The notes under the pieces: model-generated
Told to the model about the DNA's origin: nothing
Database searches by the model: none
Seen by the model: the letters and a program-made list of their open reading frames with translations, nothing else
Program-made: the position numbers and the translations under genes
In this document: positions 21,981 to 22,071 of the stretch, piece after piece
Numbering within the stretch: position 1 is the first letter of the stretch
Layout of the letters: every line of letters begins with the position of its first letter
From: an uncultured Methanomassiliicoccales archaeon
GTDB lineage: Archaea; Thermoplasmatota; Thermoplasmata; RBG-16-68-12; JAJISG01
NCBI GenBank assembly: GCA_964348155.1
Contig: CAYGBN010000004.1
Span: forward strand, 4,195-60,553
Length of the DNA: 56,359 nt
Reading direction: 5' to 3'

Positions 21981-21999
21981 CCGGGGCCCTCTCCGAGGC

Positions 22000-22034
22000 A
22001 CTTTCGCCCACCTCCCTCCTTCGAGGCCTTTTAT
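22000..22034 (+). promoter_or_regulatory. polB2 promoter: ACTTTCGCCCACC box (22000-22012) + 16 nt + TTTTAT TATA element (22029-22034)
   Basis: Direct read. ATG 22072 lies 37 nt after the TATA element, and a GGGGGAG run lies 4 nt before the ATG. Confidence 0.6.
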
Positions 22035-22071
22035 CCCCACGGCCTACGAGACACGCGCGACGGGGGAGACG

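Follow-up and report, generated by a model that had tools for sequence, protein, structure and literature searches.

A 17-nt promoter box ahead of genome-maintenance genes in a Thermoplasmatota archaeon, a predicted site of an Orc1-2-type activator

In Sulfolobus, the Orc1/Cdc6 paralog Orc1-2 binds the hexamer ANTTTC and activates transcription (PMC6061795). In S. acidocaldarius this hexamer lies at -44 to -39 from the transcription start, and in the Sulfolobus ups promoters, which have a weak B recognition element (BRE), an upstream-bound factor has been proposed to aid the loading of TFB and TBP (PMC5817253). Four arginines of S. islandicus Orc1-2 contact DNA, R381 and R383 forming the specificity pair (PMC9738581), and T356 is its phospho-switch (PMC12490963). 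These four papers form the basis of our comparison with the Sulfolobales DNA damage-responsive element (DDRE). In Halobacterium, the motif TTTCACTTTCA precedes TATA in the promoters of radA1, top6B, and other genes that UV-B induces, a similar motif occurs at radA of Methanospirillum, and the motif was published without a known reader (PMC2556686). Here we describe a box that precedes genome-maintenance genes in the window, a stretch of 56,359 nt on contig CAYGBN010000004.1 (C4 below) of an uncultured Methanomassiliicoccales archaeon (phylum Thermoplasmatota; the host). An earlier note on this DNA knew of no equivalent regulon described outside the Crenarchaeota, which is wrong in part: the Halobacterium motif is a published match, if one without a known reader.

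We have hardly any doubt that the box and its genome-maintenance regulon are real. Judging from sequence, we further think it probable that the box is the site of Orc1-2, which would act as a damage-responsive activator of these genes.

The box, its promoters, and its target genes

The five copies of a 13-mer reported in the earlier note were recovered at the same coordinates and on the same strands, with no further match in the window at one mismatch, and none of 100 dinucleotide shuffles of the window reached five matches at up to one mismatch (mean, 0.55). The TATA spacers (13, 16, 14, and 13 nt), TATA hexamers, start-codon spacers, and C-runs are likewise as first noted. The boxes, at the full length given by the matrix below, are listed with their genes and the candidate reader; G, C, and L denote genomes, contigs, and loci.

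22000..22016, plus strand: box of the polB2 promoter, ACTTTCGCCCACCTCCC, 17 nt, 30.0 bits
22029..22034, plus strand: TATA-like TTTTAT of polB2, 29 nt after the box start; BRE position A-poor
22072..24279, plus strand: PolB2-like B-family polymerase, 735 aa (Pfam DNA_pol_B)
1136..1152, minus strand: box of the mre11-rad50-nurA promoter, 29.5 bits; kept in G342 and G320
1121..1126, minus strand: TATA-like TTTAAG of mre11, 26 nt after the box start
1..1096, minus strand: mre11/SbcD, 389 aa (NCBIfam); extends beyond the window, toward rad50 and nurA on contig C4
26200..26216, minus strand: box of the HARP-gene promoter, 29.6 bits
26184..26189, minus strand: TATA-like TTAAGA of the HARP gene, 27 nt after the box start
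25667..26161, minus strand: HARP-domain protein, 164 aa (Pfam PF07443, 39.4 bits)
29236..29252, minus strand: box of the xpd promoter, 27.9 bits; kept before xpd in G320, G307, G030, and G038
29221..29226, minus strand: TATA-like TTTAGC of xpd, 26 nt after the box start
27327..29198, minus strand: XPD-type helicase, 623 aa (Pfam HBB, DEAD_2, Helicase_C_2)
36764..36780, plus strand: nrdJ box, about 200 nt upstream of the gene, 22.1 bits
36959..39328, plus strand: NrdJ, class II ribonucleotide reductase (Pfam); start at 36959 or 36992
5201..6361, minus strand: Orc1-2-type Orc1/Cdc6 paralog, 386 aa (Pfam Cdc6); recognition helix R-R-G-H-T-Q with T335
6386..6400, minus strand: orc1-2 core promoter with a purine-rich BRE and TTTTTATC; no box precedes it

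The gene labels hold in Pfam (DNA_pol_B, HARP, XPD-type helicase, class II ribonucleotide reductase, Cdc6) and NCBIfam (mre11/SbcD, then Rad50); the nurA behind mre11-rad50 is a weak NurA match, and the polymerase is presumably of the PolB2 subfamily given its partners iRadA and PPB2.

The 13-mer is the core of a longer, non-palindromic element. A matrix seeded with the five window sites only, iterated on score alone with a cut-off of 17 bits, gave a 17-nt box, A[CG]TTTC[AG]-SC-CAC-CYCCC, rather than the 13 nt originally proposed; its consensus is A[CG]TTTC[AG][CG]CCACC[CT]CCC, with about 24 bits including two flanking columns. In the host assembly (1.79 Mb, 67.5% GC) the converged matrix found 24 sites above 17 bits, against none in the reversed genome. 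The exact 13-mer pattern has 11 genome-wide matches, against none in each of three fourth-order Markov genomes; the earlier estimate of 0.01 expected matches was post hoc, because the pattern had been fitted to the same five sites, and the independent test is the rest of the genome, where 6 of the 11 exact matches lie. The hexamer ANTTTC alone is not enriched in the host genome (483 observed versus 456 expected) and was rejected as a marker there, being uninformative. A[CG]TTTC is present at 23 of the 24 sites, the remaining one reading ACATTC.

The whole-genome matrix scan that had been suggested placed 23 of 24 sites outside called open reading frames (ORFs), mostly at maintenance genes; the exception falls within the 3' end of iRadA, ahead of PPB2. 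A TATA-like word follows 24 to 30 nt after the box start at 21 of 24 sites, leaving 7 to 12 nt between the 3' end of the box and TATA without overlap, and in 10 of the 24 promoters the box starts about 54 to 62 nt ahead of the start codon. The distance to TATA had been described as fixed; this is true of those 21 sites but not of the nrdJ copy, which has no canonical TATA at +24 to +30 in the host genome. The orthologous nrdJ site in G342, of the same genus, has TTATTA at +27. The long nrdJ leader (window 36820-36960) contains a second AT-rich, TATA-like stretch at about 36868-36880, and nrdJ may therefore have two promoters. At the BRE position, -8 to -3, two or more A residues are found in 293 of 422 ordinary promoters but in 3 of the 19 with a box (Fisher p 4e-6), the C-run of the box itself overlapping the BRE position at the shortest box-TATA spacings.

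Genome-maintenance genes stand first behind 17 of the 24 boxes: polB2, iRadA, PPB2, the HARP gene, mre11(-rad50-nurA), xpd, nrdJ, radA, RPA, hjc, nreA, top6B(-top6A), priL, mcm (behind a 47-aa ORF), and genes for a MutS-like protein, an RNase_H_2 exonuclease, and a PA0069/Rv2578c-like radical SAM protein, a family which we take to be linked to repair. The remaining targets are a DNA methyltransferase, a glyoxalase/bleomycin-resistance fold protein, and five ORFs without a family. Beyond the window, maintenance genes make up 12 of 19 box targets versus 1 of 18 random box-less promoters (RmuC; p 4e-4), the 18 being those scanned of 20 drawn genes. The radA site, ACTTTCACC, scores 22.9 bits and has a core of the ACTTTCA type before TATA. 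The parts of the PolB2 mutasome (PolB2, iRadA, PPB2) are split over two contigs with a box at each, iRadA and PPB2 each having its own on contig C3; PPB2 has no Pfam match and was named by its MGRT start and its position beside iRadA, following PMC11791011. Sites at radB (17.0 bits), lhr (16.6), and priS (15.3) are borderline or sub-threshold. No box was found at PCNA, PolD DP2, two XPG/FEN1 genes, or orc1-1 (best score below 0), nor upstream of the host's orc1-2; none of four tfb promoters scored above 0, in a family search that would miss a truncated TFB3. The predicted enrichment at repair and replication genes is seen at radA, mre11-rad50, xpd, and others, but does not extend to the four tfb promoters.

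The box-led small ORFs without a family (L001:4784-4978-, L003:558-911+, L010:4467-4943-, L082:511-1125+, L015:4815-4958-) are candidate repair factors. For those of 64 and 158 aa, both gene and box are kept in other genomes; a protein atlas search gave no usable match for the 158-aa and 117-aa targets. The MCM gene (L015:1052-4729- in G000:C17) has an intein with a LAGLIDADG domain.

The candidate reader and known systems

The host genome has two Orc1/Cdc6 genes, of which the C11 copy is Orc1-1 and the window copy is of the Orc1-2 type: the window protein matches 1FNN at 164 bits versus 125 bits for 2QBY_A, and the C11 protein matches 2QBY_A at 389 bits. The window Orc1 is closest to Pyrobaculum 1FNN, and its winged helix to 1W5S, Aeropyrum ORC2. 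Orc1-1 and Orc1-2 are ancient paralogs, and the Thermoproteales retained Orc1-2 alone (PMC3914693). In a quick tree, as are all Orc1 trees here, the window Orc1 clusters with H-T-Q-type proteins of Thermoplasmatota, Asgard archaea, and three Halobacteriota, apart from Orc1-1, in a grouping that contains no Sulfolobus Orc1-2 sequence. Its H334-T335-Q336 aligns with H355-T356-Q357 of S. islandicus. To our knowledge, the Nitrososphaeria are reported to lack Orc1-2.

In a search of 301 Thermoplasmatota genomes, 231 proved to encode an Orc1-2-type winged helix. Genomes with it gave 1170 pattern matches versus 836 in the control, and those without it 261 versus 251; an excess of at least 8 occurred in 23 of 231 and 2 of 70, respectively. 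Sixty genomes were picked by family from the 301 and grouped by Orc1-2 result before their promoters were inspected; a radA box of at least 10 bits was seen in 15 of the 28 that have the winged helix and in 1 of the 26 that lack it (families, 10 of 15 versus 1 of 12). These figures are associations, because related genomes are not independent, and this counts against the proposed reader along with the points gathered below. Nine genomes were checked individually, including Thermoplasma volcanium; eight have no paralog with a T-bearing helix, and a Poseidoniaceae genome has a divergent one. In other Thermoplasmatota lineages the box occurs in the orc1-2 promoter itself at 6 of 28 loci. At L070 (G030:C35), a second, long-branch Orc1-2-like copy with an altered recognition helix lies directly behind a box. 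Paralog type, the conserved H-T-Q helix, and co-occurrence thus lend indirect support to the suggestion, already made in the earlier note, that Orc1-2 reads the box.

Like the Sulfolobales DDRE, the box has an ANTTTC core on the coding strand followed by a purine, is non-palindromic, lies upstream of a weak BRE and TATA, goes with an Orc1-2-cluster paralog distinct from the Orc1-1 initiator and bearing the H-T-Q helix with the T356-equivalent threonine, and shares PolB2 (dpo2) and mre11/rad50/nurA as targets. It differs in the strong 3' extension, CAC-CYCCC, of its 17 nt and about 24 bits, in the absence of a box from the host's orc1-2 and tfb promoters, whereas Sulfolobus orc1-2 is autoregulated, and in a regulon of radA, RPA, hjc, mcm, primase, nrdJ, and top6 rather than ups, ced, and tfb3. 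The Halobacterium motif also contains ACTTTCA upstream of TATA, about 50 to 60 nt before the start codon, shares radA and top6B as targets, and has a near match at a transposase gene (PMC2556686), comparable to the TnpB and IS6 genes in relatives of the host. Its 11-mer is a tandem TTTCA repeat, which tandem cores in G100 and G142 resemble, whereas in the host TTTC stands ahead of the core at 1 of 24 sites (on C37); its 3' extension is different, and the second Orc1 paralog is of the Y-T and not the H-T-Q type.

Bacterial LexA is a repressor that sits on a palindrome and is cleaved via RecA. The SOS system resembles the present one in a single box over recombinase, mutasome, SRAP, nrd, and mobile-element genes; in contrast, the host site is non-palindromic and upstream, and its candidate reader is an unrelated AAA+ winged-helix protein. 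Orf8 of the SNJ2 virus is likewise an Orc1/Cdc6 damage-responsive activator outside the Crenarchaeota, without induction of its own, but it is viral and has one known target, activated after mitomycin C, and the main text of the paper mentions no TTTC (PMC10123103).

Occurrence of the box in other archaea

The host RadA is 89% identical to bin292, which PMC9239135 assigns to RBG-16-68-12 ('Ca. Yaplasmales' clade B), and the order of the host is inferred from this match. Across 61 genomes of the order RBG-16-68-12, a relaxed pattern gave 555 matches versus 104 in the control, with an excess in 60. Conservation in orthologous promoters, which the earlier note had proposed to look for, was found across the order: in G342, 10 of 13 fetched sites lie ahead of regulon orthologs, nrdJ among them, and in another family 5 of 11 (G320) and 4 of 6 (G307) precede nreA, mcm, xpd, mre11, or Hef. 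In G317 (0 of 7 fetched of 8 sites) and G308 (0 of 3 fetched of 6) no site matched the regulon genes of the host. Three high-scoring boxes of G317 (L216, L217, L220) have similar TATA regions and no clear gene behind them, and are possibly a repeated element or RNA. The proposal of a binding-site regulon is thus upheld by rarity, extragenic position, fixed TATA distance, conservation in orthologous promoters, and enrichment at repair and replication genes.

In the wider set of 301 Thermoplasmatota genomes the pattern excess is patchy. At radA, the core plus a TATA-like word was found at 24 of 32 loci, 23 of them at +27 to +29, versus 3 on the opposite strand; the box is full length in Ca. Methanomassiliicoccus intestinalis and degenerate at Sysuiplasma-like loci. 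Genes that follow the box in other lineages are xpd, iRadA, PPB2, RPA, hjc, Hef, and those for a Y-family polymerase, SRAP, and an NrdR-like protein, and many fetched sites have no recognizable target. We rejected top6B as a widely conserved target, its box being present at 3 of 24 loci, every one inside the order. AAT frequently stands ahead of the core in some relatives. Loci lacking upstream sequence were left out throughout (L440, L469, L379, L317, L139, and the short radA loci of the core survey).

For the Halobacteriota, the phylum of the Methanophagales genome G001, 50 radA loci were assembled from the 30 best RadA matches and 20 hand-picked from 100. ACTTTC[AG] plus a TATA-like word at +22 to +28 was present in 40 of the 50, versus 1 of 50 on the opposite strand, which served as the control; a reversed-sequence control, which gave 31 of 50 for the heptamer ACTTTCA, is invalid because the heptamer is its own mirror image. 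The 3' extension is a different one, 1 of the 50 loci reaching at least 10 bits under the host matrix. All five box-positive Halobacteriota examined have a Y-T-type Orc1 paralog with wing arginines, as does one of five box-negative drafts. At radA of the three Halobacteriota that have the H-T-Q type, Methanohalarchaeum carries the Thermoplasmata-type extension, one has the core only, and one has neither. A strict methanogen-type pattern matched twice in five genomes and was rejected as uninformative on the size of a Halobacteriota regulon. In Haloferax, the consulted part of PMC12890983 describes no such regulon.

Among Asgard archaea, scores of at least 10 bits were reached at 5 of 29 radA loci and 8 of 29 orc1-2 promoters, one with a 13-mer identical to that of the polB2 box. 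The full-length box at the orc1-2 promoters of L353, L364-L366, and L369 (16-25 bits) suggests orc1-2 autoregulation in these archaea. Of seven loci in G494 (9 matches versus 6 in the control), the orc1-2 site alone scored high, and in G397 none of five did; therefore, no large Asgard regulon is shown.

In relatives of the host the box also stands before genes for TnpB, integrases, an IS6 transposase, and Fic/AlbA proteins. G142 has eight such TnpB copies (L533, L550, L551, L555, L557, L538, L542, L549) in two families about 28% identical, with box and TATA as the apparent promoter, mostly in the form of two to four tandem cores with a period of 9-10 nt; TnpB also lies behind the box in G038 (L114, L115) and G050 (L121, L122). 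The TnpB calls in these three genomes are based on Pfam matches for five genes. Because mobile TnpB copies carry the box, some counts in other genomes are inflated (G142, 8 of 21). No TnpB homolog was found in the host genome. L075 (G225:C74:3500-15000) holds five boxes in 9 kb with near-identical flanks, a cassette array ahead of AlbA_2, Fic, and DUF5678 genes, and elsewhere integrases, an IS6-type transposase, YhcG nucleases, and a KilA-N protein follow boxes (L093 and L095 in G165; L545 in G163; L561, L562, and L539 in G100). A viral scan gave 18 matches, none with the promoter geometry of the box, which were rejected as box sites and read as chance.

Proposed mechanism and alternative explanations

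The box itself defines a regulon of about 24 to 27 promoters. We propose that a factor bound at the box, 24-30 nt before TATA and mostly without an A-rich BRE, would activate transcription by helping TFB and TBP to load, as the upstream position and the weak BRE would imply; position and BRE are observed, and activation is suggested by the Sulfolobus ups promoters. The winged helix of Orc1-2 would read the ACTTTC[AG] core and a second contact the lineage-specific 3' extension, as paralog type, co-occurrence, and co-variation suggest. Since orc1-2 itself lacks a box, the switch would be post-translational, either through nucleotide state or through phosphorylation of T335, the equivalent of T356; a post-translational switch has also been suggested for the viral Orc1 of SNJ2 (PMC10123103). 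Upon damage or fork stress, the output would be recombination, end resection, translesion synthesis, helicases, dNTP supply, and replication restart, to judge from gene content and, by analogy, from the UV induction of the motif-bearing Halobacterium genes.

A number of observations weigh against Orc1-2 as the reader or against damage as the signal. Mapped by their offset from T356/T335, the DNA-contact arginines of S. islandicus are identical in the host at R353 only (R332); R354 and R381 are lost (G333, T360), and R383 is replaced by lysine (K362). The host matrix gives negative scores to the bases that the S. islandicus consensus has at positions 9, 10, 12, and 16, and the host core seems to lie about 10 nt, or roughly one helical turn, further upstream than the DDRE, to judge from start-codon and TATA distances. 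All 30 orc1-2 promoters examined in the order lack a box at the expected position. Because the arginine pairs, autoregulation, and a tfb target are absent and the core seems to lie further upstream, we regard the box as a variant of the DDRE system and not a member of it. The co-occurrence is also imperfect: the radA box is missing in 13 of 28 genomes with Orc1-2, Orc1-2 matches occur in all 47 genomes of the Poseidoniaceae-type family f31, which shows no pattern excess (178 versus 243), and G177 (90% complete) has the box with no Orc1-2 detected. The H-T-Q-type protein occurs in 3 of 101 Halobacteriota genomes despite the frequency of the core at their radA loci, and the Y-T-type paralogs form a separate clade whose link to H-T-Q is unsettled in the quick tree. 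The host's own hef and RmuC genes have no box. Finally, mcm, priL, RPA, top6B, and nrdJ would also fit an S-phase program.

It is on this last point that an alternative hypothesis builds, in which the box is real and perhaps read by Orc1-2 but times its genes to S phase or growth. To the targets just named it can add a weak priS site and top6A behind top6B, as well as the constitutive-looking orc1-2 promoter of the order and the kinship of the candidate reader to replication initiators. We consider a cell-cycle regulon unlikely, as one would have to leave out the box-less PCNA, PolD DP2, both XPG/FEN1 genes, and orc1-1 while taking in the PolB2 mutasome, NreA, Hjc, and Mre11-Rad50 and, in relatives, SRAP, a Y-family polymerase, integrases, and TnpB; the motif-bearing Halobacterium genes, moreover, are UV-B induced (PMC2556686). 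A damage regulon with another reader, either an unrecognized helix-turn-helix protein or a specialized TFB paralog with an extended upstream element, we judge quite unlikely. At least four TFB paralogs and a partial fifth are encoded in the genome, the wing arginines of Orc1-2 are not conserved, the core persists in Halobacteriota mostly without the H-T-Q type, and seven Natrinema host Orc1 proteins failed to replace the viral one (PMC10123103). Against this, no tfb promoter has a box, the box is over-represented in the orc1-2 promoter of distant lineages and disappears along with an intact T-bearing helix, for example in Thermoplasma volcanium, and in the Halobacteriota it goes with the Y-T-type paralog (5 of 5 versus 1 of 5), in a comparison of co-occurrence made for Orc1 alone.

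That the bound factor is a repressor released on damage, in the manner of LexA, would suit the need for tight silencing of the mobile elements and nucleases whose genes lie behind the box in relatives. This seems very improbable to us for a box that ends 7-12 nt ahead of TATA without overlapping it, at promoters with weak BREs. Repressors in archaea tend to bind over the core promoter or downstream of it. In Sulfolobus, in addition, the motif is required for promoter activity (PMC5817253). An interpretation of the box as a general core-promoter element, a replication-origin box, or the end of a mobile repeat is largely refuted and hardly credible, even though 8 of 21 pattern matches in G142 precede TnpB genes. 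In a strict window, 14 of 1041 promoter-like genes carry the box, which is therefore no general promoter element. The flanking sequences differ between sites, which are single, dispersed, and oriented toward genes, and with the lack of a TnpB homolog in the host these bear out the earlier view of a binding site rather than a mobile repeat. Origin recognition boxes, rejected as a candidate, are by comparison clustered inverted repeats with a G-string beside an initiator gene, and a regular expression for an ORB-like pattern had no match on contigs C4 and C11.

For Orc1-2 as reader, a wider speculation is that the Sulfolobus DDRE, the Halobacterium UV motif, and the Thermoplasmatota box descend from one ancestral damage-response box, with the core ACTTTC[AG], read by Orc1-2-cluster proteins. 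We see the arguments for and against this as evenly balanced, and the same applies to its two parts, namely that recognition helix and 3' extension change together (H-T-Q going with CAC-CYCC, Y-T-R/K with another extension) and that the box was taken up more than once by TnpB, integrase, and transposase genes, whose expression would thereby be coupled to the induction of host recombination. If true, the box in Asgard orc1-2 promoters would mean that a transcriptional damage response run by Orc1/Cdc6 predates eukaryotes. Whether a global DNA-damage regulator exists beyond the Sulfolobales is a question posed by the authors of the Orc1-2 work (PMC6061795), and to it the present finding contributes a precisely defined box, its targets, and a named candidate for its reader, to which it also ties an orphan motif of 2008. 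In the literature searched, which covers few subscription papers, no paper links the three motifs or describes the regulon in Thermoplasmatota or Asgard archaea. The claim is testable with genetics in haloarchaea and methanogens; the box also marks five or six uncharacterized small genes as candidate repair factors and predicts damage-inducible expression of TnpB.

Apart from the regulon, positions 47591-54466 of the window hold a cluster of two flavoprotein-like and two Fe-S-subunit-like genes, labeled by eye as putative succinate dehydrogenase/fumarate reductase genes.

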